This document shows, in pieces, positions 6,975-64,000 of a DNA stretch of 64,000 bases (positions within the stretch are counted from its first letter, which is position 1; every line of letters starts with the position of its first letter). The stretch comes from Blasia pusilla. Its lineage: Eukaryota. The notes beneath the pieces were generated by a model. It was given only the letters and a program-made list of their open reading frames with translations, was not told the origin of the DNA and did no database searches. The position numbers and the translations under genes were made by a program. The DNA lies in the NCBI GenBank assembly GCA_050084515.1, contig CM114271.1, forward strand, positions 19,592,001 through 19,656,000, given 5' to 3'.

Positions 6975-8055
6975 GAGAAAAATAAAACAAAAGTAGTGAT
7001 GAGCTTCTTCAAACTGTCTTCACAGAGACATAAGCAAAACTAAAATAGAAGCAGAACAGAAGAGACGAGCTTCTTCAAACTGTCTTCACAGAGACAAACA
7101 AAAATCAAACAAAAGAAGAAGAGAAGTGATGAGCTTCTTCAAACTGTCTTTACAGAGACATAAACATAAATAAAACAAAAGCAGAACAGAAGTGATGAGC
7201 TTCTTCAAACTGTCTTCACAGAGACATAAACAAAAATAAAACAAAAGAAGAACAGAAGTGATGAGCTTCTTCAAACCGTCTTCACAGAGACATAAACAAA
7301 TATAAAACAAGGCAGAACAGAAGTGATGAGCTTCTTCAAACTAACTTCACAGAGACATAAACAAATATAAAACAAAAGCAGAACCGAAGTGATGAGCTTC
7401 TTCAAACTGTCTTCAGACATAAACAAAAATAAAACAAAAGCAGAACAGAAGTGATGAGCTCCTTCAAACTGTCTTCACAGAGACATAAACAAAAATAAAA
7501 CAAAAGCAGAACAGAAGTGATGAGCTCCTTCAAACTGTCTTCACAGAGACATAAACAAAAATAAAACAAAAGCAGAACAGAAGTGATGAGCTTCTTCAAA
7601 CTGTCTTCACAGAGACATAAACAAAAATAAAACAAAAGCAGAACAGAAGTGATGAGCTTCTTCAAACTGTCTTTACAGAGACATAAACATAAATAAAACA
7701 AAAGCAGAACGGAAGTGATGAGCTTCTTCAAACTGTCTTCAGACATAAACATAAATAAAACAAAAGCAGAACAGAAGTGATGAACTTCTTCAAACTGTCT
7801 TCAAAGAGACATAAACATAAATAAAACAAAAGCAGAACAGAAGTGATGAACTTCTTCAAACTGTCTTCAAAGAGACATAAACATAAATAAAACAAAAGCA
7901 GAACAGAAGTGATGAGCTTCTTCAAACTGTCTTCACAGACACAGAAACAAAAATAAAACGAAAGCAGAACAGAAATGATGAACTTCTTCAAACTGTCTTC
8001 ACAGACATATAAACAAAAATAAAACAAAAGCAGAACAGGAGATGAGCTTCTTCCA
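6975..8055. repeat. 66-bp minisatellite, about 17 copies (some 62-bp variants)
   Basis: Unit GATGAGCTTCTTCAAACTGTCTTCACAGAGACATAAACAAAAATAAAACAAAAGCAGAACAGAAGT repeated head-to-tail with few substitutions. Confidence 0.97.
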
Positions 8056-8526
8056 TTTGCCTTCACGGAGACGAATTGACACTCCATTGAAATGTTCTCG
8101 AATCTTGGGCAGCAGCTTCACTATGAAGAGAGCTGGAGAAGCAATTCTCCAAACAAAAACTTTTTGTAGCTAACAAGCGCCAACTGCAGAAGTTGCTGGA
8201 TTTCTTTTTGCATTTCATCTGGTCATGTTTGGAAAACCAAATCATGATTCATGTCTCTAAGATTCCTTTCCCATACAGCCTCAAATCGGCCACTTTAGTT
8301 TGTGGTAGAATCCATCTTTCCTACACAACCCACAAATCCTGCTGGCGACCTCATTCTGAGTGCTGATCTCACCCCAACTCCACATCTCTCACCATGAATA
8401 GAACTAGAAAAGGAACTCCAAATACAACAACTATTTTGGAACAATCCTCCTCCACATTCTCCTCATCCATCACAAGAGTGGGCACAGTCTCACCCCTCAT
8501 TATACCTTCACCCCTAAAGACTCCCT

Positions 8527-9154
8527 TGTCGTGCGCATACATATCGCTACACAACCCACATCGCTGGTCACATCTACATACCACATAACACCGATCTTCC
8601 CCAACATACGGGTAGATCCACACATAAATGAAACATAATCACGCATATACACTAGGACCCCACAACAAAATCAAGAGTAGTAAAAATGGCTCACCTGGCC
8701 TAAAACTCCACTCATGAATCTACAACGGCATATCAAACCACATCCACCCTCTGCTATGAGGGAATCCGGACGCTAGTACCCTAACTCCTACACATCCACA
8801 CACGTCTATGCAAGAGAGGTGCTCCTAAGGCTCAACATGAGAAAGATGGCTTGAGAAAGCCATCTCTCTCACTCTTATGCCCTTGGGAAGAGCCAAAAGG
8901 CTCTTCCCCCAAAACTAGCCCTCCCAACGGTAACCTGCATGCACAGGTTACCGGGTGACCGTTGACTCGGTCAACAAGTCACCTAACGGACTAAGACCAA
9001 AATAGGGAAATTTCCATAAACAACGTTTCATATACAATAGACCTGTCGCCAACCTCATCCAACATCTTAGGATGAAGTTACATCCAAATAGCCGGCTGAC
9101 TCTCTATACCGTCGACGCGATAGAACTCTACCTACGTCAAACTAAGATGTGAAA
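8527..9154 (-). mobile_element. 3' LTR (628 bp) of a gypsy-type retrotransposon
   Basis: Begins TGTCGTGCGCATAC on the + strand and ends AAGATGTGAAA (decayed TGACA). Both termini match the LTR at 59060-59702. Confidence 0.75.
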
Positions 9155-9156
9155 AT

Positions 9157-10670
9157 TGTCGTGCGCATACACATTGCTACACAATCCACATTTCTGGTCA
9201 CATCTACATACCACATAACACCAATCTTCCCCAACATATGGGTAGATCCACACATAAATGAAACATACTCACGCATATACATTAAGCGTGGTTAATGTAT
9301 ATGCGTGAGGTTGCCCACAACCGCCCCCCTACCTGGAAGTTGGATCCCCCCCACTCCAGATAGCACACTCATATGCACCCAAAAAGATCTCTATCCTATA
9401 CACATCTAGCACCATCCGTGTCGTCATCCCCGCAACACTACCATACTGCAGCAACGTGTCGTGTTGATCCCTCCGAAGAGATCTAACACTCTCGTACCTT
9501 GCTCCAAACATAGACACGGCTCCACACATGCCTCACGAGCTCGTCTGCACTCCACATATCTCACCGCTCGTCCCCATCAATAATAACCAAGCTCCGCACC
9601 ATGGAAAGAGACACCGTGGCGTGTCTCTTCGTGAGACTATATGCTATAGGAATGTCCTCCGCATGTGTCCTCCTCTCCCCAAACCCTCATGATCAGAGAA
9701 TACTACATGTGAATACTGCCAACGTGGTCATTGTATCCTCACATGGTCGACTACCACTACTCCCTGCAAACTACACCGCTAGATGGCTCACCCATCCATC
9801 ACCTAATCGCCACTGTGGCCGATAAGAAATTGTCTCCTCCCAAAAATCCAGAATGAAACCTAGAGGATACAACACCGTACTCCCTACCAACACATCATAT
9901 GACTCTGTCGGTGTTTAATCGCCCGAGTGCGCACCATCGCACTATCCATCAGGAGTTAGTGATTAGACTCAACTTTGGCTAGAGTCTAATCACTAACTCC
10001 TGCCGAGTCATGTACTGCGTGGGTGATACACCCCCAATAGAGGTTTGTATCTGAAAGGAACAACATTCAATGTCGCCTTTCCTTAAACCCAATGCCAAAC
10101 ACGCCGCTGTCCCTAACGTCAAGGATTGCCCTCCTGAATCAAGTAAGACGCGATGCGGGTGGTACACCGTACCTGTGGGACTAACCAAGCAAAAAGCTCT
10201 TGCTCGATTATCCAACAACACCACACCTGGTGTGATCATAGCTCGCTCTATCGCTGGCCTAGCTGACACATCTACCAACTTTGCCGCCGCAACATGCCAT
10301 GACTCAGTGGGGAATGTCTCGAGCACATGCTCCAAGGGAAAGTCCACCACCTCCTCAACTACCTCTAAACAAGAGGCAATCACCTCTCCACGCTCACACA
10401 AAGTGGCGGCCAGCCGGAACACATCCGCTCGTCCAACTCCCAATGTCACCAACTCCATGGAGGAAAAAAACATAGCGTGGCTCACCCTAGTGGCCACCTC
10501 CAACAACATGGTCGACACTGGCTCCTCTTGAGCTGGCATAGGAGTTGTCTCTCCAACTCCTTGTGACATCGACGCACATATCCCACTTATTGGTACTACT
10601 GGTTTTCTAGGCACCATGGACGATATATGTAGTGCCTCTCACAACGTGAACGATTGGGGAATCCTAGCCT
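9157..10670 (-). mobile_element. Internal region of the same LTR element: LTR-end copy, polypurine tract and degenerate gag-protease; no RT seen
   Basis: ORF 9979..10617 has the aspartic-protease motif VLLDSGGQ and continues past a stop/frameshift as YDVLVGSTVLYPLGFILDFWEE. A C-rich tract at 9321-9329 reads as a purine-rich PPT on the minus strand. Confidence 0.75.
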
Positions 10671-10676
10671 ATTGTA

Positions 10677-11031
10677 TGAAAGACCTACAGTCATAAAACA
10701 CGTATAGAATCACATACAATCAAGCCAAACCCACTCCACAATGGGAGAATCTAGGTCGAAGCTTGCGGGAAACACCATAGCCAAGGGCTCTACTCACTAC
10801 CAAGGCTAACTCCCAACGCACAGGCTCAACTCAAAGAATCGATGTTCTTTGAGTGCACTCCACCTTATATCCTCCAACCTAAGAGCGGGCCCTCTTGGGA
10901 AAGTCACCCCAACCGAGTAACCCCAACCCTATGTATGAAACCGCATCTCTACCAAGCCACTACGGTCCTACATAAGGAATGGCCTCTACTAGCACACTAT
11001 ACTCTACGACATAATCCGTATGGTCATGACA
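10677..11031 (-). mobile_element. LTR terminal fragment of the same family as 38276-40169
   Basis: Highly similar to about 39810-40169 and ends in the same GGTCATGACA terminus, directly abutting copia RT sequence. Confidence 0.85.
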
Positions 11032-12460
11032 GCGAAAGCTCTATACGGGCTCAAACAAGCTCCAAGAGCTTGGTATGGCAAGATTACATACGTCTTACAA
11101 GAGTTGGGTTTTAGGGTATCTGATTCTGACTCCTCATTATATGTCTTAAGAGGACAAGATCAGACAGTTCTCATTGTGTTGTATGTTGATGATCTCTTGA
11201 TTAATGGGAGTACTAAAGAAATGTTACAACAAGTGAAGCTTAAGTTACAAGCAGAATTTGATATGAAGGACTTGGGAGAACTCAAGTACTTCCTTGGTAT
11301 TGAGTTTATCAAGGTTGGAGAGAGCATGTGGTTATTACAACGACAATATGCTCTTCATATGCTTTCAAAATATGGTATGACGGCTTGTAAGCCAATCTCT
11401 ACACCGTTGGACCAGAGCGTGAAGCTAAGAGTGGATGAAGGAGAGTTGCTTGCAGATTCTAATATGTGCAGGCGCATGGTTCGAAGTTTGATCTATCTTA
11501 CTATAACCAGACCAGATTTGAGCTATGTTGTTGGCCTAGTGAGCTTGTTTATGCAAGCCCCTCGAAAACCTCACCTTGATGCTGTGAGGAGGATTATGCA
11601 GTATGTGAAAATTCTCTATTCTATTTGGGCTTCAATTTGAACCTTCTCCGAGTTTTCAATTACAGGGATTCACAGATGCTGATTGGGCAGGAAGCGTGTT
11701 TGATCGAACTCCACATGTGGTTATTCATTTACTTTGGGAAGCGCAACTATAAGTTGGGCTTCAAAGAAGCAACCTACAGTTGATTTATCTTCAACAGAGG
11801 CTGAGTACAGAGGAGCAACCAATGCAACATGTGAGGCGGTGTGGCTTCATCGATTACTTGTTGAGATTGGTGTTAATAACTTAGGACCTAGTATAATATA
11901 TGCAAACAATATTAATAGCATCAAGCTTGCTAATAACCCTGTGTGTCATACTCGTACAAAGCATGTTGAGGTGCACTATCATTTTATCAAAGAGAAAGTG
12001 CTTGCAGGAGAAATTGATTTTGTGTATATAGGTACAGATCAGCAAATTGCTGACATCTGTACAAAGGCATTGTCTAGAGATAAGTTTGAGATGTTTAGAA
12101 AGGATTTAGGCATTAGAGATATCGATATGAGCTTGAGGGGGAGTATTGAAGATTGAGTTACAGTCAAGCTCATGAGACACTTGAACTGCTACATTTGGTA
12201 CTTACACAAAGTAGGGAAGCTTAATCTTGGTTAGTCAGTTAAGCACGATTATCTTAACTAAGGTTAGTTAATCACAGTTAGTCTAACTCGAGACTATGGT
12301 TAAGGGTAGGTTTAGGGTTGATTGTACATACCCTATATAATTGAGAAGAAGACCAGCCTCCACTCATTCACTCATTACAAATTTCGTTCTCCATGGTGGT
12401 GTGTGTGTGTGAGCCGTTTTCCACCAGTTATGCTTGTTTAGTAGTTTTCCACTCCTATAA
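11032..12460 (+). mobile_element. Ty1/copia retrotransposon remnant (RT, RNase H, PPT and start of 3' LTR)
   Basis: KALYGLKQAPRAWY, LYVDDLL, TRPDLSY, DADWAG (frameshifted), SSTEAEY and [14 protein letters not shown] motifs. PPT GAGGGGGAG at 12135-12143, then TG at 12147. Right boundary is approximate. Confidence 0.93.
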
Positions 12461-12660: not shown

Positions 12661-13889
12661 GTGGAGTGTTCAAATCTCATGGACAGATATGACGGAGAGT
12701 TAACCGGGTATCGGCAGTGACGTGAACGGTGGAATCCTTCCCCAACCAAAGATGATCCTTGCTATTTCACCGCGATTTTACGACACATGAGGATCAATGA
12801 CTACTCTTTGGTCCCCTGAAATCTGAACCGTCGGATCTTCATCGACCATATAAAACCTCCATGGGGACCCACCCCAAGAGCTTCCAAAACGCCCCTAATA
12901 GAGCCATAGGACTTCCAAATGAAACGCACTAATAGAACCCGAGGAGAATTGGGGAGAATGACTTCGCTATTTTTCTCGTTAATTGGCCTCAATGTGCTTC
13001 TTGTCCTACTTCTTACGATTATTTGTGGCATAAGTTATTTAGGGGTGGGGTTTAGGGTTTAGGGTGGAGTGTTCAAATCTCATGGACAGATATGACGGAG
13101 AGTTAACCGGGTATCGGCAATTCTGTGAACGGAGTGGAATCCTTCCCCAACCAAAGATGATCCTTGCTATTTCACACCGCGATTTTTACGGCACATGAGG
13201 ATCAATGACTACTCTTTGGTCCCTGAAATCTGAACCGTCGGATCTTCATCGACCATATAAAACCTCCATGGGGACCCACCCCAAGAGCTTCCAAATGCGA
13301 CGCCCTAATAGAGCCATAGGACTTCCAAATGAAACGCACTAATAGAACCCGAGGAGAATTGGGGAGAATTCAGACGACTTCGCTATTTTCCTCGTTAATT
13401 GGCCTCAATGTGCTTCTTGTCCTACTTCTTACGCTGTTCGCTGTGGCATAAGTTATTTAGGGGTGGGGTTTAGGGTTTAGGGTGGAGTGTTCAAATCTCA
13501 TGGACAGATATGACGGAGAGTTAACCGGGTATCGGCAATTCTGTGAACGGAGTGGAATCCTTCCCCAACCAAAGATGATCCTTGCTATTTCACACCGCGA
13601 TTTTTACAGCACATGAGGATCAATGACTACTCTTTGGTCCCTGAAATCTGAACCGTCGGATCTTCATCGACCATATAAAACCTCCATGGGGACCCACCCC
13701 AAGAGCTTCCAAATGCGACGCCCTAATAGAGCCATAGGACTTCCAAATGAAACGCACTAATAGAACCCGAGGAGAATTGGGGAGAATTCAGACGACTTCG
13801 CTATTTTCCTCGTTAATTGGCCTCAATGTGCTTCTTGTCCTACTTCTTACGCTGTTCGCTGTGGCATAAGTTATTTAGGGGTGGGGTTC
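12661..13889. repeat. Tandem triplication of a ~403-418-bp unit immediately upstream of mS35
   Basis: Units start GTGGAGTGTTCAAATCTC at 12661, 13064 and 13482. Units 2 and 3 are almost identical. Confidence 0.95.
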
Positions 13890-14172: not shown

Positions 14173-16947
14173 ATGCAGAAAGCTCTTGCAGCATTTATCG
14201 GTCGCTCATCCCGCAGCCTGTCAGGTCAAATTCTCGGTCACTCTGCATCTGGCTACGGCCACGGCTACTCGTCCTCCGTTGCCCGGAGATTCGCCAGGCA
14301 TTTTTCGGCCAGCGATGGGACGGAGGTTGGTGCATCTTCAGGTCAGATTCCCACGCTTTTCAATTCTTATGTTACCTATTGGGTTTGAGATGAGAAGCGA
14401 TGGAGATCGGAAGCTGCATGGAGAGGTTCAATAAATTGCACCAGCAGACAGTATGGAATTGCAGGGAATGATATCCTGGTTCGGGAGAGGCGCCTCAGAA
14501 TGCTGTAAATGGGATTCCGCCAATTGTGAAAATGCGATGCAGTGTTGTGTTGACTGCGTTTGGAAAATTGCTGGCTTGCTGAGTTATTCTAGAGTTTTGC
14601 AGTTGTGATTGTCGCTTGTGTTGTTTAGCCGTGCACCTTCTGAGTTTGTGGAGGTGGACTGGCATTCGTTCAGTGGAGGGTGAGAAAGCAGAGGCGGAGA
14701 AACCAGTGAAACGGAAGAAGCTGAGTAAGAAAGAGCGCTTCGGTCGATATGATCAGGAGTTTGAGGACGAAATGGCGCAGATTCCAATCGATAATAGCAT
14801 AGAACATCTCTACGACACGAGACCAATCGTGGAGAAATGGATGGGTCACCCAACATTTTATGATATGATTTCAGGTTTGAGTGTACCTGGCCTTTCTCTG
14901 TACATTCTGTCACAGCTGTGACACTCTACACCACCGGAGTATTAGCTAGCCATCTTGAGGCACCAGTCTACAGCCATCGCGTTTCCTGATCCAACTTTAG
15001 CTTGTGCACTCAATCTCTTTAGTAGTAGCTGAGATCATTCTCTAACTGAGGAAACTTTCCTGTTTACATAGTGTCCTTTTGGTGACTATTTTATACTCTA
15101 GGATTTTAATTACTGAAGGGCCTCTCAAGAAGAATGGAGTGAGTTTTCAATACCTGGTACTGCCAGTGTCGGGGTTCCCAGCCCCAAGGAACTGGTTTTC
15201 CCTACGTTGGAAGTTCAGATGTGAACAGGAGGACAGCTGCAAGGACTAATTCATTATAATCTATAGTAGTGTGAATCATTCATAGAGAGGCACGGGTTTC
15301 TCAGCCATCCGCAGCTTGTAGGAACAGAGCAAGAGGTTTCTCCAGAATGCATTATGGGTGCAGCTCACTCTTGTGGAGATGGGTCGAGGTCTGTTGTTGG
15401 TTGGCAAATCAGGGGTTTGGATGGGAGAGACACGGATATTGTTGAACATTCAGGACTCTAGACTGACCTTTAATTGCAGAGAAATAGTAAGCAAGGCGAT
15501 AGAACAGCATGCATCTGTAAAGAATGTGAGATGCAGCAAAGAGCGGATCAGAGTAGCTCTTTAAATACACCGGGCCCTCTATTGTGCCCTTCCTACAACA
15601 GAAAACGTGTCCTACCTAATGTAAATGCAATTCACGTCCAGGAGTGCTGAGTCACTGACAAGTGACACCTGTTCACCAACACATTAGAGGTGAGTCACAA
15701 GAATGACCTGCCTGTCCTATTATACCTGCGGAGGTGGCTAGGCATGGTGTCAATAGAGGAAGGTGGCCGGTAATCAGCTACCTGCTGATATCTAACAGAT
15801 ATGACATGTAATCCTGTGGTGTGAACCAAGTCCTCAATCAAAGACTAACCGATGCAGCTTTCGTAGAAGAGTAGATTTTTGGGAACTGAAAGAATCCACT
15901 TCTTAGTCTCGAGAGATCAAAACTTATGATGAGTGGGACTCCTATCAATTTGAAATCAGAGGAACAGTGCCTCATCTCCTCTGTGCTCTCTGCGTCTAAT
16001 TGTGTTATTTGTCCTCAATCGTCAATGTGTATTATAGACTGAGTGAATTATTCTAAAACCCTACAACCCTACTCAGGCCATGACCTGTGCGTACTCAAGA
16101 GAACACATACCTTGCGTTTGCTCCTGAGTGGGAATCTTGGAAATCTAGGGCCTGGAACCAATAAATATCCATCAAGCAGAGGCCAAGCTTGAAATCTAGT
16201 GCTGATAGGGTTCAATGAACCGAAGGGGTCAATTGTTTCATCTTCCATGTATGCATTGTAGGTGCCCACATATATAGCGTAGTGCATTACATGCTTTATG
16301 TGGATAGAATACTCCCAGGTTTCCTAATTGCTTTCTCATTTCTTGAAGTGTTCAGACATTCTCGTTCTTACTTATGTAATTCATCTTTGGATGCAGAGGA
16401 TGCATATCCAAGAGGAGGAGCTCCCAATGATGAACCTCCTGGGGAAGGTCCAATTTTGAGGTGGGAGACAAGGGTAGTACTGAGCCCTGGAGGAGAAGCT
16501 TATCATCCAGCAAATCGCAAGGTTAAAGTATCAGTCTATGTGAAAGAGCTGAACCTTTCTGCTGCAGAAAAGGAACAGCTTTTGGCAATGGTGGGGAAAC
16601 GCTACAACCCACATAAAGACGAATTGACCATAGTCAGTGAAAGGTACTGTCAAACACATGGCATATTTTAACAGTGAGATTTCTTGTGAGCATATGTAGA
16701 GACACTGTTGTGATGAGGGTACAAGTTTCCAGATATGACATAAGGCTGGTTGGGGCAAACAAACTCAAATGTAATGCCAACTGTGTCCCTTGTAGGGTTG
16801 TGGAAAATTATGCTCCTCACTCTGAAATTTCTGTACAGATTTGAGCAGCGGGAAGAAAATAGGAAGGATGTTCTGAGGATACTATTATCTCTGATCGAAG
16901 AAGTGCAGAAGAAAGAGGAAGTTGTCGTGGAGGCTGAGCAAGCATGA
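14173..16947 (+). CDS. MRPS35: Mitochondrial small ribosomal subunit protein mS35 (S24/S35 family), 4 coding exons, about 241 aa
   Basis: GT-AG exons 14173-14341, 14674-14874, 16397-16643 and 16839-16947 join in frame. The N-terminus is Ser/Arg-rich like a presequence. PILRWETRVV...HPANRKVKVSVYVKELNLS...VGKRYNPHKDELTIVSERFEQREENRKD is typical of plant mS35. An extra small exon in the 1.5-kb intron is not excluded. Confidence 0.88.
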
Positions 16948-20101: not shown

Positions 20102-23100
20102 TCTATATAATAAGACAAGATAGCGGGACAAAAGAAAAATAGGCATCATTTTTTACTTTTGTTGCTTTAGCCCATTAGATCGCCTCGTATATATCCATTT
20201 TATTATAAAATAAACCTCAAAAGAGGACAAACAAAGGTAATAACATCTAGAAAAAGGAGTCAAAAAATGCATAAAAGAATGCAAGAATGGAAATGGCAAC
20301 TAGCCAACGCAAACACCGACCCAACGAGTTACACGATTGATAGCCTGAAACAAATCTGACAAGAACAAGAGTGGTTGATCAGACGTGAATGGACGACGAG
20401 GCGAGCGACCCCCACCACCTCCGCACGACGAATCAATATCAATGCTTGTGCACGTTGTAAGGCCACTGAAATGCATTGCTGAAAATAAGTAGTAACTACA
20501 AAGAGAGAAGGACTACGGGAAGGGGCAAGGTGATGATTCTCGAGGGAGTGGTGAGCACAAGTTTTTAGGAAAGTATCAAAAGACACATGTAAATGACCGA
20601 ATACTTCCATTGCAAAAGGAATAAATCCATCAGTCGCATGTCTCACAGCATAACTTAACTCCTTGATTCTTGTTGCAGCTTCAGGCGCCAAACCTTTGGT
20701 ATGTGCGACTCGACACACCAAGTCAAAACGTGTTGGATCAGCAACCACCACATCACCTAGTGTCCGGAATCCACCTCGAGACATAACAAGATCCACTCTC
20801 CGACGAGAGGTAGGACATGGAGTTGCTCTTGCCCAACGGTGTATCCTGCAGTACGAGCCATCGATGCTACCGCCTCTCTAATGACATTATGTGTGGCCGT
20901 TCGTTCTCCACCATGTGCACAACGTAGAATATGGATACCCTTGGCATCAATGGGATCCCCGCATACACAATTCGGCACACCTAACAGAGAAGGATGGGGA
21001 AGTCCCAGACGTAACCGCAAAGCTGTCGAGAATACACTTCGAGGAAGACGAAATGGAAGAATAAGAGGATTTGCAATAAGCCACGCCCCCGCTCTCGTAC
21101 CCGCACTTGAACGCAAACAAGTTCGATGAGCGTCAGAGGATGCCTCGGAGAGAATGCTGGAAAAGTTCATTTGATGCAGATTCTTGGAGATATGCTCTTG
21201 AAGTCGATCAAGCCCTTCCGTAATCAATTGACTGAAAGGGTGTAGAATTGCTTGTGTAGCAAGAGGAAGAAGAGCTTGTGCAGATCTCAGTTGTTGTTGA
21301 AATAACAAGTCCCCCTCCTCTACATGGACGATATGATCCATCAAGATAGGTGTATCTCCTTGGAGAAACCTTGAAGTCATAATCGGTGCTACCAACGCCC
21401 AACTCCCCAAAAAGGCTGCAGGAGCAGATGCGACTATGGAGGACAGTCCCACCCCTCCAAAAGAAATAGGAAAGATAGCTTGTCGTGAAGCAAAGACACC
21501 ATCCTCTCCCTCAAAGGTACTCGGGCCAAGAAGTTGACCAAAAGTTGCCCAGATAGAAGTATCAAAAGATATAAGAACCTTGAAATGGGAGGACAAGTGC
21601 GAAGAAGGTAGGAGGGACATGGTAGAAAACATTGGGAGAGAATCCCATAAGCCTCTTGGGGATGGAAGCCATTCCACGTCTTTCAAAAGGGCCTCATCCA
21701 AGAACTTTGAGACATAGTCAATGAAGCAATTGGGACCCCAAGAACCCTAATCGCTTCAATGTAGATGGGAAAATCAGGAGTAGGTGGGGTGAATGTTGAG
21801 GGAAGGCATGAAGGAGACCATACTCCACATTTACTAGGTTGGACTTTAAGGTTTAAGAAAGACAGTTGCTTCACGAAATGGGTATAAGCAGGAACCACTT
21901 CAGAAGGAGGACTTATAACGTGAGTGTCATCAATAATAGAAGGGAAAAGACAAGATGGAAATACTTGCGCTGATGCTCGGAGGGCACAAAAGTGGGCAAT
22001 GGCAAAGAGTGGGCCACCCATGGGATCACCTTGACGTGTGCCACAAGTCGATTGTAGATTACTATATTCCCCGGAAGTAGCATGATGGGAATAGATAATG
22101 GGCGTATCATAGGCATAGAAGGAGCGAGCGAATGGAATGAGGCTCGCAAGTTGTCCTCTTGCACAACTTAATTCCTCAGAGATGGCCGCACGAGAAACTG
22201 AATTGAATGCGTTAGCCATATTGACTTGAATTGTTGCCCAATCTGGATGAATATCAAGAGTGGAGCGAATCTTATGCACCACAACCTCACAACCTCTAGG
22301 AGTTGCCACTCCAAATTGATGAGGAAATAAATGGGCACTAAAGTGAGGACGAAATTGCAAGCATAGGGATCGACTAACCAAGCGGTATAAAACATCTCCA
22401 ATAGCCAAAGGGCGCACATTTGAAGGAGGCTTATCCATAGCCAACAAATGACAAGCCCCTAAGAGCCTAGAGATAGAGAAAGGGAGACGTCATGCCGCCA
22501 TATGTGTACACACCTTATATAGAGAGACAAAGCCACTTGCTGAATCTGCCACGATAAAGCAATTGCGGAGATGCGAAAAAACCATCCATAATTAGATGGA
22601 TAGAAATAAAACAAAAGAAACGAATAGGGATTTGAATGGAATATATATTAATCATTAAGTAATTAATTTAATAATATAATGGGTGATTGTAAATATTAAT
22701 AAAATATGATAAATAACCAAAATTTTAGAATTTTTACCTCGATTGATATTTGATGGAAAAAGGAGATAAAAATTGAATGGAAGAATAGATTTTATTTAAA
22801 TTTTATGGAAAGATAAAATTACTTAGTGTATTGGTATATCATTTAAATTTGAATGGAAGATTGTAATTACTAAGAACAGTGAAATATTATTACTCTTCTA
22901 AGATTTTAGAAAATAAAAATCATATTTAAAATTTGAAATAAGTAAAAAAATCATTTTTTGAAATAATTTTATTAATTCACATGTTAAATATTGGGAAAGA
23001 AAATTGAATTTGAATGGAAAAGGAAAACAATTTCGTAAATTAAAATTAACTAAGATTTTAATTAGTGAATGTTATTTTGGTGGGAAGAATGGAAGGGGGA

Positions 23101-33914: not shown

Positions 33915-36900
33915 CTAGTAAGATGCTTGTGCGATGCACGGGTGAAGTAAGGTAGTATAAAAGCAAGATACGTTTTATAAAATTTATTTCATCTTAATAT
34001 TTCTTTATGCACTATATTTCGCATGTAGTTACCTTCTTTATTTGAATGTTCATCCCTTCCAATGGTAATGCGGATGGAACTTTTCTTTCCTACTCTAGAT
34101 AATGCTACATACAATTGACCATGAGAAAATACAGGAGTAGGCAAGTAAATGCCAACCTTTTGCAAAGTTTGACCTTGAGACTTATTAATAGTCATAGCAA
34201 AAGCCGACCTAATAGGGAATTGAAATCTACGTAAATCAAATGGCAAACCGGAATCTGATGCAATCAATGGAATACGTGGAATAAAATGCGCTCTCCAATA
34301 TTCTTCCCAGTGATAATTTCAGCATCGATGCAATGTCTCATAAATCCACGAATCACCAATCTTGTCCCGTTTGGTTGTCCATGTGATCCATTCATGTTTC
34401 GTAAGAGCATAATTGGTGCACCAATCTTCAAACACAAACGATGCGGAGGAAGTCCAGAAGGCAAGCATGTGTTCAAGAATTTAGTTGGGTAGATATGACT
34501 CATCCCCTCATTCGGAATAGAATCCACGCTCTCATAAATAAGCTCCTATACACAATGTGTAATGAATTAGTGAGAAAATGTAATATTAGAATCCAAACTT
34601 CACTGACCACATATTGATAGAAGTACAAAGGAGATAAGTCTAAAGGATTATCTCTCCAGGGAACCGAGACATAACGTCTGTATTTATGTCATCAACATCT
34701 TTATTTCTTAGAGTTAAAATAGCCGTATCTCTTATGAAATCAATGTCATGGAATCGGCTATGAAAATTGCCATACATCAAATCAATAAGATCACATATCT
34801 TGTTACTATTAGTAATAATTTCAAATGATAATCGTATGAAGTCTTCTCCCAAATGAGGATGTAAAGGTACACGAACCTCTCCCACTTCCAATAACCAATC
34901 AACAAAAGTTTTTTGTTCATCACGCAAATGACCATCCAACCTTTGAACTCTCATGTTTGTTTTCAACTTCATGACCCTTACATTAGACCAAAGAAATGAT
35001 CTTGTTATGGTGGCTTGGATGATTTGCGGCCGATCCCCATGGCGAATAACGGGGAAGACTTGACGAAAATCTCCACCAAATACCATAAGTTTTCCACCGA
35101 ATGATAATTGCCGTAAATCATCCAAAAAAACTTCCATGATATCCTATAAGGTTCGATTCACGGCCTCAAAGGCATGACGATGAGCCTTAGGTGCCTCGTC
35201 CCATATAATGAGCATTGCCTCACAGATTAAGCACGCTCCATCACTATCGACCGATAAACTACCAGGAAAAAGGGAAGAAAATTAGAAGCTGAAATAATTT
35301 GAGTAATTAAATTATATTTGATGTATTAATATGATTGAACCTAATTAGAACAACTTATGGCACTTACTTGCAAGTAGAGCTTTCATGAAGATTAATGGGG
35401 ATCTTGAAGCGCGAATGAGCAATACGTACTCTGTCTAACAATAGGGCAACTATACCAGATGATGCTACAGCCAAAGCTATACCTCTAGCGCTCCTTACAC
35501 TTGCAAGGAGAAGATTATATAATTTTTTTTTCTAGTTCCACCCGGACCATCGATGAAAAAAACTTTTGGAGATGGTGGAGCATTCGCGCATATTTGATCA
35601 AGCTCATCATGTATAGCGTCCCATATTATGCGTTGTCCTTCGTTTAGACATGCTTCTCCCAATTGCACTTGCTCAAATAATTCTTCCGTGTCATATGATA
35701 GCTCTTGTTCCTCCAAATATGAGTGTGAATGAAGGCTTTTGAAATTAGCTTGGGGCATATTTGGGAAGTCAGATAGTCTCTTTCCTTGATCTTGTAAATA
35801 ATAATGGACTTCTAATAATGCGATATTAATGATAGCATCATTAATAGGAAGATTGGGAATTCCTGTTTTTTGTAATGGAAGAGTTCTCAATATAAGTAAG
35901 ATGGAAAATATTTATACTATTAGGAAGAAAAAAATTTATGTAAGGAATGTTAGTATTGGATTCTTACCTGACGTCGTTCATATAAGAGATCTTCTACCAA
36001 CGGAACCAAGAACTGACTCCATAATGTTGCAAGTTGGGCAGGTGTGTTGTAAGCTAGAATGATTGCAAAGAGACGGCGTAGTGAAGAACTCGTACAAATT
36101 ATGGAAGCTTCTTCAAAGCAGGTAAACATCTCCCTATCATCCTTGAGAAGTCCCAATTAGATAGCAGCCTCCTTGAATGTTGGACATAATATCCCATGAA
36201 CAATTCTCAAGCTTTCATATGGAGTTGCTCCTCGAACATGATGGAGGAGTAATCTCAACCAAGGTTGTTCTCCTTCGCATGTGACAAAGTGAGAAAAATT
36301 AGCTCAACTATCTATATATAAAAGAAAATGGGTGAGGCTAGTAAATATATAAGTAAAAGTAAGTGTATATAGCCAACTTTTAAGTATTTACAAGGATGAG
36401 TAAGGTATTAGCGGCCAATGGGATGGCCACAATCATCAAATTTTTTTACCCGAGGAATCCATCTCTTATTACTCCAACGATAATATGAAGAAAACTCTAT
36501 ATATAGATATGGTCGAGTAGTGGAGTCAGATAGATTGGTTGCAAACCATCGCGTCAGAGTTGTCTCTCTATTTAGTTGTAAAATATCTTGAGGAAGGTCA
36601 ACATCATTGAAGTAGACTATTTGTTGCTTCAGAAGATGAACTGCTAATCTCTCAATACTTGGAAGTTCAACATGTAGAGAAAACTTGAAGAGACGCCAAC
36701 ATGCTTCTAAAGAAGATATATATCTGGAATTTTTTTTTTCGAAAAATTCAAGTAAGGAGAATGAACATGATGGATAAGTAATAGAATATAATACATAACA
36801 TCAATGAAGTAGCGGAATCATACCGTGCATCAAGATATGATGTCTCGTCAACAACCTCAATTGTATTAGGTGTATCCATGTCCTTTGAAAACTTAAATGA

Positions 36901-39900
36901 CACCGCATCTGATCCCTTATAAACGTATTTGTAGAAGTACTCGACGGCATAAATTATACTTGTGATTTCAAGATTAATGTGACAATCAAAGAGGGTGCAT
37001 AACGTAGGATTATATGGCACAACCCAACAGTTATCCAATGAATGTTGGCTCTTAATTATCGCCCTCCCATTCTCCAATCTACAAAAACATGGTAACAAAA
37101 CATGAATATGCTTTCCAATACTACATGGGCATCATATGCCTTACAATAATAAAGATAAACCAAGATTAAAGAATCCTTACTTGCGATAGATCGGATAATC
37201 ATCTTCTGTCTCTGTAGAGTTCGCCGCAAAAGCCTTAGGATAGCCTTTGGTACATTTTTTTGTTTCCTTATCCATACATGGTGCATTTGGATTTAATGTC
37301 CAAATGGACCATGAACCATACAATTCGCAATAGTAGAATACAACCTTGGATGGGTGTATTGATCAAGGATTTTTGCTGAAATAATACGATCATAATCATG
37401 TGTGGTACGTGGTTTATCCTCCCGTCCTAATATAATAAGAACATGCACATGCGACAAACCTCTTTTTTGGAATTCCACCGCATGGATGCATCCTCTAACT
37501 CATCCCAATATTTTCTTCTTGATGATAAGTCTTAACAACTCCTTCTTCTTTTTCTCAAAAACTCGCATGACCAAATCTGGTCAGTCCGCAACTGATTGAC
37601 CAGGTAATAAGGCTGATGTAATCTCCTCCCACTTTGGATTGCATATCATAGTAAAAAATTAGTCTGGCTTCCCCAAATGTCTTACAATTACCATTGCATC
37701 TTGATACAATTGATGCATGTGACGTGACTCTCCAGTAAAAGAAGAAGGTAATATAATACGCTTCCCGAACCTCCGACTATCCACATCATGTCGATGCATG
37801 GCATCTTTTACACCTTGATATAATTCAGCCCTTAACTCCTTTTGATTCAAGCAAACCCACGACAATCGTTGCATCTCTATAGTGGCATAGAGGTCAACTA
37901 TATATTCTTGAGTAAGTCGACCAAACCGTAATAAGCGATTGTCATCTTCACCTCCAATCTGCGTTTGAAGTCCAAAACATGCAAATTGCAAGGCTGTAAC
38001 ACTCTTTGTTTTCCTTTCCTCAAAAATATCACCATCAACTCTTTCCTCATCCATCCAATATTTTTTGAGGTTGCAGGTGTCCCTCCTCATGAATAATCGG
38101 CCCAATCGATCAAATTCTCTATGGCCTTCAATCCTCCCAAAGGGTATTCCAGGACGCCAACCTGCTTCACCATAGATAAATAGTAGAACAAAATAAAGTG
38201 GAATCTATGCTTCATTGAGGTCTGATATACGCTTCACTCCTCCTCCATGTAGTCCTACAATTATATCACGATAGTTGTCGTGCGAATCCACATCGTCATA
38301 CAACATACATCTTTGACATACCATACTCACATACATACATAACATAGACGAGAGCATCCACAAACACAAGTGTACCACAACTGAAATCCGTGAAAGACCT
38401 ACTGTCATAAAACACGTATAGAATCACATACAATCGAGCCAAACCCACTCCACAATGGGAGAATCTAGGTCGAAGCTTGCGGGAAACACCATAGCCAAGA
38501 GCTCTACTCACTACCAAGGCTAACTCCCAACGCAACAGGGTCAACTCAAAGAACTAACTGTTCTTTGAGTGCACCCCACCTTATATCCTCCAACCTAAGA
38601 GCGGGCCCTAATGGAAAAGTCACCCTCCACTGAGTAACCCCCAACCCTATTCTAACGCAATAGCTACTCCGCCGCGGGTTGATGACATGCTAATCAAACT
38701 TGCAGCACCTGAAAATATCACCTGCATGGAGAGGCTACACTATACTATGCTCTACAGGTCCATCAACCAAAAACCTGAGATGCATAAAGTGCCTAACACC
38801 TCTCCCAACAGCACCAAATGAGCTACAACAGTGTGTACACTAGCATAGTTAAGAACTCAACAGTTAAGCGTCTTCCAAGCAGAATAGCCCAAAGATGGGT
38901 GACTAGTTATGCAACACTCAAATCACAAATCCTGCAAAAAATGCCTCACGCCCAAGCTTGCTTGCTTGCTTGCTCCTTGCTCCTTACTCCGCCTCTCACG
39001 CCCACTCGCCCCGAGCTACCACGAGTTGCCTCGAAGCCTCGAAGCCTCGAGAAATGCTCGAGACATGCCCCGTTCGCCGTGCTTCACTATGGAGAGAGGC
39101 CCAACCAGGGCGCCCCCAATGGGATAGGCGTCTCCAACAATGTACGAGTCACCAACCAACCAGCCCCTCCGATCCGCTATCCACCATAGCCAGACCTTGA
39201 GCTAGTCCGCGAAATTTTGATCAGCAATTACTCCGCAAATCCTCAACCAAAATGGAATCTATTTCAACCAGAATTCAATTGACCACCACAGCTATCTCTC
39301 CACAAAAAATCAGCTATAACCAAACTCTTACTCCGAGCTAAAAATCAGACAAACTTGCTGTCCATACATCTCCAGAATCGCAAATCCGACAGCGCTTCCG
39401 CCCAGTTTCATGCACGCAGAAATCCGCAACGCTCCACACACTCAAGCAGACAGCTTCACATGAGATCACAATACAAGTAGCAACAAGAACCTCTCACCCG
39501 ATCTGGATGAACTTCAACAGAGCTTCCGCACTCCAAGCTCTCCACATCAGAAAACCGTCGAACACAAACCAGAATCTTCAATCCTTGATAATTTCCAACT
39601 CCCTTGACGAAATCCGGCAATCTAAAGTGTGTTGGAAAGATCTCAAAAAGACGTTTCTTTCCCAACCAACCACGCACCAGATTCACACCTCCAAAATAGG
39701 CCACAAGCCATGAACATCCACGCCTGAGTACACAATCAGCCCTAACCAGATCCTACTGATCCACAATCGAAGCTACAATCGATCTACGTCAGTTCTTTGA
39801 GTGAAATCCGTGAAAGACCTACTGTCATAAAACACGTATAGAATCACATACAATCGAGCCAAACCCACTCCACGATGGGAGAATCTAGGTCGAAGCTTGC

Positions 39901-41450
39901 GGGAAACACCATAGCCAAGAGCTCTACTCACTACCACGGCTAACTCCCAACGCAATAGGGTCAACTCAAAGAACTAATTGTTCTTTGAGTGCACCCCACC
40001 TTATATCCTCCAACCTAAGAGCGGGCCCTACTGGAAAAGTCATCCTCCACTGAGTAACCCCCAACCCTATGTATGAAATCGCATCTCTACTCAGACACTG
40101 CGGCCCTACGTAAGGTATGGTCTCTACTAGCACACTATACTCTAAGACATAATCCGTATGGTCATGACATAGTCAACATCTTCACTACTATCACTCGACA
40201 AAATAGCCGCAACCTCATATGCAATTGGTAAGTTATAACGCTTAGCATTGAGACCTCTCTTACTTGCCTTGAGGATGATCCTCATATTAAGGTCAGTTGC
40301 TTCATATGCCATATGACAAAAGATCTTGACATATGGGTTGCATTCATGTAACGTGTCTTGTAGCCCTCTCAAAATATCTATATTAAGATTATAAAATCTA
40401 GACATAACTCTTCCACGATTCTCCAATTCATTTGTAGTATCATGGATATAGAGTTGAGCAAATTGGGGATGACCCCCTATATCAGAATGTAAGGGTCCAA
40501 TAGAATGATAGATTCCGTTTGGACCCTAAAGTGACCAGTGCCACCTATTTGTTCATTTACATACACTCCAATAGATGCAAGTTGAAGCGCAGAATTATAA
40601 GCTCTAGCATTTGCAAGGAAATGAAGAATTCTAGGACCAACATTTGATATCAAGGATTCCACGAAAGGAGGAGATGATTTCAAAAGTGGTAAATGTATTC
40701 TCCCATGGCCACAACACATGCCATATGGTGAGTCACTAAACTTGATACCTTTCACTCTTTCACATCTTAAACGTAAAGCATGACATGATGGACATATCTC
40801 TGTCATGGAACCCAAGGTATGACGACCGGTGATACGATTTAAACTCCCTCGTAATCTCAACTTCTTAATGTCACTTTCTTGGAAATTGGGTCTTCTTACA
40901 AGATTCAGTAAGGTATTTAATCTTACAACCCTCTGAACAACAAACAACGTAGCAAGGAGGAGTTCATCTTCAACTTGTGTTTGTTGTGCTAAGATTTCCT
41001 TGCGACCGGCACGCCTTTTTTGTTGTGCGTTTGCACGCATCAATCTTCGGAATTCGTGCAAATCTGGAGGGTTTGATGGAAGAGGAAGTGTGTGCAACAA
41101 ACAGGGCATTGCATAATTAAAAATCTAAACATGCATCATCGTGTAAATAGAAATAACGCACAAAACAAAGGTGCTTACATTAGAGATGTGTTCTTCGATC
41201 CTACAATTTGGATCCCCGTGATCGGTTGCAAAATTGGTATATTTGTGATAACATCTAGTGGCCGTCTCTCTATGTTTGGTAATAATCGGCCCATACTCCC
41301 CATCTACATCACACACGGAAAAACTATGAATTAAACTTGAGAAGAGAAATGAAGTGAAATAAAATATTAAAAATAAAATTTTAGAAATTGAAGGTGAAAG
41401 GTATAGATTGAATGCAAAGGAACAATGAAAAAGAGACATTCGTACGCCGC
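33915..41450 (-). mobile_element. Degenerate autonomous-type Helitron (RepHel); 5' end not located
   Basis: N-terminal CPSC...CC, Rep motifs LPSSFTG, EFQKRGLSHVH (HUH) and YFYKYVYKG, and Pif1 helicase motifs IDGPGGT, IIWDEAP, GGDFRQ, FAMTINKSQGQTL and HGQLYVALSRV. The 3' end is a GTGC-ATC-GCAC hairpin plus CTAG|T at 33915. Confidence 0.95.
38276..40169 (-). mobile_element. Solo-LTR-like insertion (1894 bp) inside the Helitron ORF
   Basis: TGTCGTGCG...CATGACA termini flanked by TAGT on both sides. Removing it restores the Helitron frame (SSEDVDYRDII). It contains a ~270-bp internal direct repeat (about 38382-38650 and 39802-40070). Confidence 0.9.
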
Positions 41451-59059: not shown

Positions 59060-60851
59060 TGTTGTGCGCATACATATCGCTACACAACATACATTGTTGT
59101 CACCGAACACACACACAAACATGCACGATCCCATGCTAACTCATGACATCCAAACAATGAGACAAGAAGTACCAAAATATCTCCAATCAATCAAGATCCA
59201 GTCTCTCTCAACTCCATACCTCTTATATGTGTACACTCTCACATGTCTCTCTCAATATCAAACCAAACCCACTCTCCTAATGAGAGGCTTGGGTTACACA
59301 CACAAGGCAAGCAAGACCATAGCTCCGCCGCCTCATGCCAAGAGGTTCAACAAAGAGAGAATAAACTCTCAAGCTCTCTCTCCTTGAGGTATACCCCTCC
59401 CCTCTCCCAAGCTCTCTCCATGGTAATCTATGCTGCCAAGTCACCTCCTTGGCTCTTGACCTGATGTAGGAGCTCAAGGGACACTTACCAAAAATAGGAA
59501 TTTGACCATATACTCAAAATGGCACTTACCTAAAATAGTAAGTTCCTCAATATGGCTCAAAATAAGCCAAAACGAGGGGGAAACCTGCTCTCTCAGGTTT
59601 CCTAGGGATTCAGCAGGTCATCCTTAACCTCCCAAGCCTCTCCTCCACTACTCGCGAAGGCGCTTTATCACATCTCATCGATCTATCCAAAAAGATATGA
59701 TAATTATCGTGCGCATACACATCGCTACACAACATACATCGCTATCACCGAACACACGCACAAACACACACGATCCCATGCTAACTCATGTCATCCAAAC
59801 AACAAGACAAGAATTACCAAAATATGTCCAATCGCCCCCCTAGTTGGTGGTTAGGTTCCTCTAACTCCAGATAGCCATCTATCCCTACCTACCATGACAT
59901 ACATCTCTTGGACGCTAAGAGCAAGAAGTCCGGGTGCTCATGTGGCCCCATCGTTAGTCGCCTTCTTGTCATCCATATTACAGACACAAGTTGGAATGTA
60001 GAACTACCTATGCTGTGTACATCTGAGACATATCCATTGTCCCTCAGCAACCCTAGTGGGAGGTGGTGTCAAACATGCCATATGCCATTCTCTCGAACAT
60101 CCATCACAGACTAGCATAGTGGCTGCACCGCGGGCAGAACCACACAACATACATCGCCAACCTGCAGGAACTACTGCTAAGCTCGGGTCAACTGTATCGT
60201 CCATGTTTGGAAGGTGACATGGCGCACAATTACGCACATGGTCCTTCCAAACCATACCATCGCGTCCCTCTAGTAAGAGAACACCTGATGGAAAAACCTC
60301 ACGCACTCTCAAGATGGTGCGCCCTGCAGTCACATCCAACGTCGTGGATGCCGTCTACTGCAAGTAGACATAGTCTCCTTGATGAAACCTCCAGATAATA
60401 GGTTGATAACCACCTCCCCATACAGTCACATACCTCAATGTATCTCGATGCTGCGCAATTGCCAAATTCTCAAATGCCATAGGTATCACTCTCCGAAACA
60501 ATTAAGCCCTCTGAGAACATGATTGCATCCATACATCAAGGTCATCAAGGTTTAACACCTCACCGACATCTCAATGAATGGACGCAGGTAAATCTGGCTC
60601 TCGGCCATACAAAAGCAAGTACGGTGAGAAAGACCCTAAGGATGCCTCCTTGCTGAATCTGTATCCCATCGCCAACCACGGCAACTGGAGGTCCCAATCT
60701 CCTAAGTGACCTCTCTGCAAGCCATACTTGTGTAGTCCTCTCTTCACCGTCCGCACAACTCGCTCCGCTAGTCTATCCGCCTCAGGATGATCTTGCGAAG
60801 TAGTGTTGTGTCGATCAGTGCCTCATCACACAAGGCCTGAAACTCCCCACG
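59060..60851 (-). mobile_element. 3' part of a gypsy-type LTR retrotransposon: integrase, C-terminal PHD finger, PPT and 3' LTR (59060-59702)
   Basis: Integrase core GEFQALCDE...HPEADRLAERVVRTVK...W...L...YR...SPYLLLYGREP. PHD finger CMLC...LVCDGCSREWHMACLTPP...GQWICLRC. C-tract at 59835-59840. Truncated by a CACTA end at 60852. Confidence 0.9.
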
Positions 60852-63800: not shown

Positions 63801-64000
63801 TTGAACAGTTTAGATCTGCCAATTAGCTCTCTGTGCTCAAACCAATAATGAAAGATTGGATTAAGGGATTACGATTTTTAATTCCATGTGTGAGTGTTCA
63901 TTTGAAGTTTTTTCTTTTTCATTCTGTTCTTGGGTTAGTTCGCCATCCTCGAGAAAGTTTCATGATTTTTGGGTCCCATGTGGAGGGTGGAGGGTACAAA
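60852..64000. mobile_element. CACTA/En-Spm element end (continues off the right edge)
   Basis: Starts CACTAGAAGAA exactly where the integrase frame is cut. It is followed by many ATGACT/AGTCAT-type subterminal motifs in both orientations. The other TIR is not in the window. Confidence 0.75.
61150..64000. repeat. ~350-bp tandem array, at least 8 copies
   Basis: GGGTGGAGGGTACAAA at 61895, 62244, 62579, 62930, 63281 and 63985, with a variant near 63635. Copies are more diverged toward the left end. Confidence 0.95.

Follow-up and report, generated by a model that had tools for sequence, protein, structure and literature searches.

Here we describe retrotransposons that combine split direct repeats with a DDE integrase, in a 64,000-nucleotide stretch of Blasia pusilla DNA (GenBank assembly GCA_050084515.1, contig CM114271.1, positions 19,592,001 to 19,656,000 of the forward strand; hereafter the window) and in related loci. 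Three elements, e1, e2 and e3, lie on the minus strand of the window. Their conserved architecture is target site duplication (TSD), block B1, a predicted self-priming primer binding site (PBS), gag-pol with reverse transcriptase (RT), RNase H (RH), integrase (IN) and PHD finger, polypurine tract (PPT), block A', two nucleotides (NN), block B2, block A and TSD, where A, A', B1 and B2 denote repeat blocks. Since the 5' repeat is devoid of A and the 3' end reads B-A, the elements carry split direct repeats (B ... A' B A), and the two equal long terminal repeats (LTRs) of Ty3/gypsy elements were not found. The reading that best accounts for this structure, and which we consider rather probable, is that the integrase cuts an internal attachment (att) site, similar to a circle junction, in ends-joined or over-length cDNA.

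Repeat blocks of e1 and e2

The preliminary description of the window had reported a repeat of 8527-8651 at 9157-9281 (e1) and of 59060-59188 at 59705-59833 (e2). Both repeats are real: 8526-8651 matched 9156-9281 with 93.7% identity over 126 nt, and 59064-59188 matched 59709-59833 with 90.4% identity over 125 nt (repeat families D12 and D13 of the window). Read in element orientation, i.e. on the minus strand, both 3' ends run PPT, A' (~125-165 bp), 2 nt, B (~490-515 bp) and A. The terminus motif TGTCGTGCGCATACA, allowing up to three mismatches, gave six matches as against 0.73 expected, a number reached in none of 100 shuffles; five of them lie at 8527, 9157, 38276, 59060 and 59705, and the sixth, at 43108, looks unrelated. 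The motif GCCCCCCTANNTGG, a purine tract on the minus strand, occurred at 9323 and 59834 only (0.15 expected). The sequence common to e1 and e2 was limited to the A blocks and the PPT region, with matches of at most 79 nt.

The true extent of the e1 repeat is 8527-8666 and 9157-9321, the latter broken by a 32-nt palindromic insert at 9282-9313. Reads from other copies skipped this insert (93 reads passed from 8603 to 9316 and 16 reads from 8658 to 9314). The insert is therefore specific to e1, and the PPT adjoins A' in e1 just as it does in e2 and in the relatives described below, in agreement with the earlier observation that the purine tract lies beyond the extra copy. At the same A'/PPT boundary the insert creates a perfect 18-nt inverted repeat at 9266-9310 (CTCACGCATATACATTAA / TTAATGTATATGCGTGAG).

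The reads were a ~2 Gb whole-genome shotgun sample of the window's species (run X10), of which 18,735 were placed on 8300-11200 at 85% likeness. The features of e1 are as follows.

9979..10638, minus strand: internal remnant, an open reading frame (ORF) with the motif LLDSGGQ, homologous by BLASTP to the protease region of the clade's ORF1
9323..9336, minus strand: PPT, CCAGGTAGGGGGGC on the minus strand; motif also at 59834, and homologous AAATAGGGGGGC before A' in relatives
9157..9322, minus strand: block A' (inner copy), from the PPT to ...CGCACGACA; the insert 9282-9313 forms a hairpin (perfect, 18 nt) with 9266-9283
9155..9156, no strand: 2-nt spacer AT of a decayed att palindrome ...GACA-NN-TGTC...; read consensus GATGTGACA + G(T/C) + TGTCG
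8667..9154, minus strand: block B2; 704 reads depart from the window sequence at 8667
within B2, minus strand: TATA region near 8865-8880 (distal part of the unique 3' region, U3); repeat and unique 5' regions (R-U5) from the PBS-complementary site 8835-8848 to 8667
8527..8666, minus strand: terminal block A, with the 3' terminus ...CGCACGACA at 8527; read depth falls from ~1630 to 0 left of 8527

The corresponding features of e2 are listed below.

60571..60822, minus strand: C-terminal part of the integrase core, 74-86% identical to liverwort proteins with rve, Integrase_H2C2 and PHD
60004..60354, minus strand: C-terminal PHD finger (Pfam PHD, E 6.2e-11)
59834..59847, minus strand: PPT, adjoining A' directly
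59705..59833, minus strand: block A' (inner copy)
59703..59704, no strand: 2-nt spacer AT
59189..59702, minus strand: block B2
59060..59188, minus strand: terminal block A

The integrase ORF and PHD finger of e2 thus sit just upstream of its purine tract, and its B2 has no second copy within the window. In e1, RT and IN have been deleted and the protease-region remnant alone survives; its ORF (10638..9979) matched residues 553-769 of ORF1 of the metagenome locus L001 with a BLASTP E value of 1e-19 and had no Pfam match. A single e1 element spanning 8527-11031 was considered and rejected, as there was no TSD, the end blocks were unrelated and the reads showed a breakpoint at 10677. Both e1 and e2 would be 5'-truncated copies of a replication-competent form (B ... 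A' NN B A). A 66-bp satellite (window 6979-8061) lies ~470 bp left of the e1 terminus, and a ~350-bp satellite array (window 61300-64000) cuts e2 off upstream of its integrase remnant.

Reads from the window's species

The LTR end had earlier been described as followed by exactly AT. The dinucleotide is indeed present between the inner copy and the remainder in e1 and e2 alike, but the window letters around it are not the ancestral ones. At the start of A, 2068 reads gave ...GATGTGACA + G(T/C) before TGTCG, and the window sequences 'AAGATGTGAAA AT' and 'AAGATATGATA AT' (GTGAAA AT) are therefore decayed forms of a palindrome TGACA-NN-TGTCG, with B starting with TG.

At the B/A boundary (8667), the 704 diverging reads had the consensus TACATGAGAAAGATGTCAGGGGGC in element orientation, bases 2-15 of which are the exact complement of 8835-8848 inside the B block of e1. 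Thus, B ends running into a putative self-priming PBS are also present in the family of e1. Read depth was ~1264 in B and ~715 in the bin 8591-8687 straddling the B/A boundary, which is consistent with about half of the B ends continuing into A and about half into the PBS. The read consensus also restored a TATA box near 8865, ~25-30 nt upstream of the PBS-complementary site; this site is, by its position in the read consensus, probably the transcript start.

The clade is very abundant in this species, since a depth of ~600-2100 was obtained from roughly 1% of one run, which corresponds to thousands of copies. The differences between reads and window over 8300-11200 were mostly C>T (296 places) and G>A (215 places), each other type occurring at 18-115 places; such an excess is expected for methylated repeats.

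The 3' end in related elements

The integrase fragment of e2 retrieved 65 proteins, and an alignment of 11 of these retrieved 80 metagenome loci (L001 onwards). Counts of 3' ends refer to the 61 loci in which pol is followed by 700 bp or more. Of these 61, 34 had a candidate short direct repeat just downstream of pol. Six candidate pairs (L030, L031, L040, L055, L056 and L069) were discarded as tandem or low-complexity artefacts and 28 were kept; a true A'/A pair was present further downstream in L030, L031 and L040. In total, 31 of the 61 loci, representing ~17 insertion sites as judged by their flanks, showed the layout of PPT, A', 2 nt and a repeat ending in A. This agrees with the earlier suggestion that the layout is inherited rather than accidental.

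Block A was present exactly twice in all 28 clean-pair loci. The boundaries followed the consensus AAATAGGGGGGC(A/G), A' ...GACA, NN, TGTCA... B2 ...TTTTG, A ...GACA, flank. NN was 2 nt (AC, AT, GT, GC, AA or TC) in 23 of the 30 loci examined, the search pattern leaving the junction unresolved in the other 7. In both contexts the PPT was followed by A within 0-2 nt, and B2 ended at the same point as B1. A and A' are 88-165 nt long. From the PPT it is 90-165 nt downstream to the TG terminus of B2, whereas in Ty3/gypsy elements the PPT directly precedes the TG of the 3' repeat.

A second common form has the structure B-int-A, where int is the internal region; L007 is a complete example with the TSD TACA. 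It could have arisen by two att cuts in linear cDNA, from a circle of the 1-LTR type, or by later A'/A recombination. Since this form is without a 3' R, it should not replicate and would be dead on arrival. Among loci without a pair, no A was found after pol in L005, L022, L044, L046 and L079, and L028 showed a junction-like motif only. One locus, L054, is rearranged: at 1282-1798, A'-NN-B is continued by the first ~180 nt of B in inverted orientation, the pivot being an internal palindrome (CTCAAAGAAC..GTTCTTTGAG), so that the element ends in a second ...GGTCATGACA terminus.

The 5' end, target site duplications and primer binding site

The preliminary description spoke of an extra copy followed by a full 3' LTR. 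The 5' repeat is not such a full LTR without the extra copy, as it lacks block A altogether. At six independent 5' ends (L033/L037, L047/L068 (same site), L070/L071, L007, L046 and e3) the repeat consisted of B only, followed by the PBS. Block A in plus orientation was found upstream of pol in none of the 80 loci. Three loci were irregular, with A inside the reported span of the pol match in L023 and L079 and an inverted B-A beside pol in L018. An ordinary longer LTR, starting with the extra copy at the 5' end as well, had been named as the outcome that would overturn the earlier interpretation; it was seen at none of the six ends. Among the 11 loci that have a pair and extend 5 kb or more upstream, B1 itself was present in five (L033, L037, L047, L070 and L071).

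The integrated termini were TGTCA...TGACA, and at all five sites where both ends were visible a 4-bp TSD flanked B1...A (TTTG, AGGT, CATA, TACA and TAGT). In this respect the elements have the TG...CA termini and the 4-6 bp TSD of Ty3/gypsy elements.

The 11-16 nt that directly follow B1 formed a perfect complement to a site inside B, at a distance of 124-181 nt from the end of the block. The complement was 13 nt in L071, 11 nt in L033 and 16 nt in L068, and in each of these three none of 3000 control positions reached it; in L047 it was 13 nt to B2. Covariation was also seen: the PBS differences between L047 (..TCCAAAAAA) and L068 (..TCTAGAAAATTG) are matched by changes in B. The PBS of L046 was identical to that of L071 and L033. 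Pairing of the PBS with the start of A, to which it is partially complementary, was rejected as it was not conserved in L033. A PBS of the tRNA type (TGG...) was sought by eye after B1 and none was seen. Of the two kinds of priming proposed earlier, the complementarity thus points to self-priming, and the predicted PBS is of the Tf1-like kind.

Encoded proteins

The named homologues of the e2 integrase among the 65 proteins were from the liverworts Marchantia, Calypogeia and Riccia, with 74-86% identity. The homologues carry rve, Integrase_H2C2 and PHD, and the full-length ones also RVT_1 and RT_RNaseH. The locus L001 has intact ORFs and no usable 5' end. Its ORF1 contains Asp_protease_2, and its ORF2 contains RVT_1, RT_RNaseH, Integrase_H2C2 (HHCC), rve (DDE core) and PHD; the best relative of solved structure was Ty3 Gag-Pol (7q5b, E 4e-98). 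The pol order of Ty3/gypsy elements, protease (PR)-RT-RH-IN with DDE and HHCC, is thus present in L001 and the homologues, while in the window just the IN tail, the PHD finger and the PR remnant survive. No Phage_integrase match, indicative of a tyrosine recombinase, was found in L001 ORF1 or ORF2 (E ≤ 0.001) or in the Pfam lists of the 65 homologues. The data confirmed that the clade consists of Ty3/gypsy-type retrotransposons encoding protease, RT, RNase H, DDE integrase and a C-terminal PHD finger.

A further and unexpected domain in ORF1 of L001 (gag/protease; L001:976-5085) is that of a C-5 cytosine DNA methylase (Pfam PF00145, E 1.8e-13). For Klebsormidium, the available text of PMC5890265 describes a Gypsy element that has a Dnmt3 domain.

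Sister family X

The termini at 11031 and 40169 had been put forward as related ends abutting target DNA without the extra copy. Both are real 5' termini, that at 40169 belonging to the TSD-flanked e3, but they are of a sister family, X, and not of the families of e1 and e2. Its members in the window are as follows.

38276..40169, minus strand: e3, complete, non-coding family-X element with the 4-bp TSD TAGT (on the plus strand)
parts of e3: B1 39802-40169; PBS 39791-39801 (pairs with 39965-39975); internal region 38651-39790; partial B2 38382-38650; A 38276-38381
10677..11031, minus strand: truncated family-X B block with the 5' terminus TGTCATGACC at 11031; it breaks off at 10677 and adjoins a Copia RT gene

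Element e3 is a complete copy that has suffered internal deletion, with loss of the PPT, A', NN and 99 nt at the start of B2. A total of 1169 reads (agreement 0.75) departed from the window at 10677 and matched the context of e3; thus, 10677-11031 is a broken family-X fragment and not the 5' end of e1. After 11031, 663 reads and three contigs (agreement 0.97) gave NN+TGTCGTGCGAATCC, and family X has the same NN junction as the family of e1.

Inside B, the PBS-complementary site of family X (39965-39989 and 38545-38575) forms one of the two arms of a palindrome, and the transcript could therefore fold into a hairpin at its predicted 5' end. A Helitron on the minus strand (PIF1 helicase and Helitron_like_N; 34640-38204 and 40142-41124) is apparently interrupted by e3.

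Proposed route of integration

Given a PBS that immediately follows B1 and a PPT that immediately precedes A', reverse transcription by the standard scheme defines the LTR as A-NN-B. Synthesis would begin with the last base of B for the minus strand and with the first base of A' for the plus strand, giving a cDNA of the form [A-NN-B]-PBS-int-PPT-[A-NN-B]. The tips of such a cDNA, GGTTTGG... and ...TTTTG, would not be integrase ends. The integrated termini and the TSDs sit exactly at the palindrome halves within A-NN-B. We propose that the integrase would recognise the palindrome TGACA-NN-TGTCA inside the LTR and cut after CA on both strands; the CA-3'OH ends would then be recessed and the 5' ends would overhang by 2 nt, as in retroviral ends after normal processing.

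The CA-NN-TG sequence had previously been regarded as an LTR-LTR joint. That assignment has to be revised, as the palindrome lies inside the LTR defined by reverse transcription, and the joint of the cDNA ends is B2|A, where the PBS-side end of the cDNA is joined to the PPT-side end. Because the replication-competent form contains this joint of B end and A start, it should come from an ends-joined molecule (a circle or concatemer of the 2-LTR type) or from over-length cDNA. If such a molecule were opened at the att site preceding B1, the product would be B1-int-A'-NN-B2-A; two att cuts, or the cutting of a 1-LTR-type circle, would yield B-int-A. The central idea of the preliminary description, an integrase that cuts a pre-formed CA-NN-TG junction, therefore appears to be the best explanation here as well. 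A broader claim, to which we would give an even chance, is that this Ty3/gypsy clade of the green lineage has moved its att site inside the LTR, that its integrase obligatorily excises at the templated palindrome in ends-joined or over-length cDNA, that this is the first such retroelement lineage, and that split direct repeats arose convergently in retrotransposons with a DDE integrase and in those with a tyrosine recombinase.

Several observations weigh against cutting at an internal att site, or reduce the force of the evidence for it. We infer the route of integration from the structure of the elements alone, and the metagenome contigs are possible chimeras. B1 was not found in L016, L020, L035, L045, L078 and L080, i.e. 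in six of the 11 loci with at least 5 kb upstream; these may be truncated copies, or their 5' end may lie beyond the locus. The PBS complement was not equally convincing everywhere: in L047 it was only 8 nt to its own B1, a length reached at 165 of 3000 control positions; in L007 it was 6 nt, which 1058 of 3000 reached and is not significant; and for the 11 nt of e3 the control was invalid, as palindromes and another copy of B are present in the control region. No A'/A pair was found in 27 of the 61 loci, 18 of which end after a single A followed by unique flank, and such single-A ends could equally have arisen by later A'/A recombination. All copies are old, with A'/A identities of 72-98% and B1/B2 identities of 79-87%, the latter below A'/A in three of four full copies. 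A mirror form (B A NN B int A) would also be expected from the random opening of circles of the 2-LTR type; none was seen, though only two single-A loci (L007 and L046) have a visible 5' end.

Alternative explanations

The most serious alternative does without a circle. The extra B-A would be made during reverse transcription, for example by the minus strand switching from A' to A in a read-through RNA tail, and the resulting over-length linear cDNA would be trimmed at internal att sites. A and A', at 88-165 nt, are long enough for homology-driven switching, the common B-int-A form (18 loci) is the product of two att cuts in plain linear cDNA, and the absence of the mirror form suits an over-length linear molecule. 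However, this requires transcripts ending beyond B2 and a particular choice among several att sites. It also leaves unexplained why the B2|A joint falls exactly at the PBS-side and PPT-side boundaries, which is the natural result of joining finished cDNA ends. We therefore hold template switching to be unlikely, though it deserves more weight than any of the explanations that follow.

Two simpler schemes retain ordinary LTRs. If the LTR were A'-NN-B-A, with the same ~125 bp at both of its ends, the PPT would be canonical, and it does adjoin A'; yet B stands alone at six 5' ends, A is absent upstream of pol in all 80 loci, and the TSDs flank B1...A and not A'...A, so that this scheme is hardly credible. 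A canonical LTR of B+A at both ends, with a duplication of A at the 3' end only and loss of the 5' A by decay or deletion, would have TG...CA ends with 5-bp inverted termini, and the age of all copies examined leaves room for decay. It is nevertheless very improbable, since the putative self-priming PBS starts at the very first base after B1 at five sites in three families, as well as in the read consensus of the e1 family, and identical independent deletions of A at every site are implausible. A cycle like that of DIRS, Ngaro or PAT-like elements, with a tyrosine recombinase acting in trans or missed, would readily suit B-coding-A-B-A, an arrangement typical of DIRS elements (A-coding-B-A-B in the available text of PMC5890265). 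Against it stand the lack of any recombinase domain in the L001 ORFs and the 65 homologues, the presence of a DDE integrase with an HHCC finger, and the 4-bp TSDs with TG...CA termini at five of five sites, and we give it very little credence. Chance nesting, tandem insertion of a short B-A unit or an assembly artefact might be suspected in a window full of nested repeats, where e1 is chimeric at 10677, and L054 is a case of palindromic rearrangement. But the same order, the 2-nt spacer and the exact boundaries recur at ~17 sites of several diverged families, in the window assembly and in raw reads, and tandem insertion would leave a 4-bp TSD rather than 2 nt; there is next to no probability in such an origin.

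Other features of the window

The window is repeat-rich eukaryotic DNA. Besides two satellites it contains the Copia RT (10993-11640), a second RT (21683-22489) and the Helitron at 34640-38204. A near-perfect tandem duplication, with ~403-418 bp spacing and 96-100% identity, lies at 12661-13888. ORF fragments at 16219-16671 and 47744-48160 matched mitochondrial ribosomal protein S28 (E 9e-10) and rRNA_processing (E 4e-8), respectively, and are possible remnants of host genes.

Relation to known systems

Among Ty3/gypsy elements, the self-priming Tf1, sushi and Tcn1 elements are especially similar in the order RT-RH-IN, the HHCC and DDE integrase, the aspartic protease, the TG...CA termini, the short TSDs, and, as predicted for our elements, a PBS that would pair with the start of R rather than with a tRNA. 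The likeness to Tf1, sushi and Tcn1 is one of features and not of a tree, and a PHD finger is present here in place of their chromodomain. The elements described here further differ from Ty3/gypsy elements in their unequal repeats (B at the 5' end and A'-NN-B-A at the 3' end), in a PPT 90-165 nt upstream of TG, and in an att site internal to the LTR as defined by reverse transcription. The available text of PMC6317226 describes self-priming for Tf1/sushi and, among plant elements, predicts it for the Tcn1 and TAR lineages.

Split direct repeats are familiar from elements with another recombinase, and TOC1 of Chlamydomonas is a DIRS-order tyrosine-recombinase element of this kind. To our knowledge, tyrosine-recombinase elements make no TSD. 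The DIRS order (Ngaro, PAT-like) shares with our elements the A-coding-B-A-B type of split direct repeats with a built-in end-to-start junction (PMC5890265, available text), but differs in that here a DDE integrase, and no tyrosine recombinase, is found together with 4-bp TSDs and inverted TG...CA termini. The literature found on 'split direct repeats' concerned, in the text available, tyrosine-recombinase elements throughout or was in the form of general reviews.

The integrases of retroviruses (PFV and HIV-1) are reported to cleave the palindromic LTR-LTR junction of 2-LTR circles (PMC1180852, PMC1905944 and PMC4372172, in the text available). The likeness is in a CA-N(n)-TG palindrome that is cut by integrase into integration-competent ends. 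In retroviruses, however, the junction arises only by joining finished cDNA ends, as a side or rescue route, whereas here the palindrome is templated in every copy and appears, by structure, to be the only place where integrase ends exist.

The nearest published hint found is Gypsy-7a_cRei, an active PHD-bearing element of Chlamydomonas reinhardtii, the left LTR of which is without the last 8 bp of the right LTR (PMC9940879, available text). Compared by description only, it is likewise a Gypsy element of the green lineage with PHD and with an asymmetry of the same sign; but the asymmetry is of 8 bp (88-165 bp in our elements), its PHD is placed between RH and INT, and no inner copy is mentioned in the text available. 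No published description of the split-repeat layout with a DDE integrase was found in the available text of the sources, though its novelty may be affected by Additional files 1 and 5 of PMC6317226 and by the Chlamydomonas repeat library (Supplemental Dataset 15 of PMC9940879). The positions of the PBS, the PPT and the integrated termini are irreconcilable with tip-directed integration in these elements.

Textbook LTR retrotransposons and retroviruses integrate linear cDNA, the tips of which are the integrase sites, and the circle junction as an integration substrate is an old idea that was abandoned for retroviruses. If the cutting of an internal att site is true, the clade would be a natural system whose DDE integrase is obliged to cut a palindrome lying within the DNA, much as a cut-and-paste transposase does when it leaves its donor. 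Software that searches for equal LTRs with adjacent TSDs and for a PPT adjoining the 3' LTR would annotate the clade wrongly or overlook it, and split direct repeats would no longer be a signature of tyrosine-recombinase elements.

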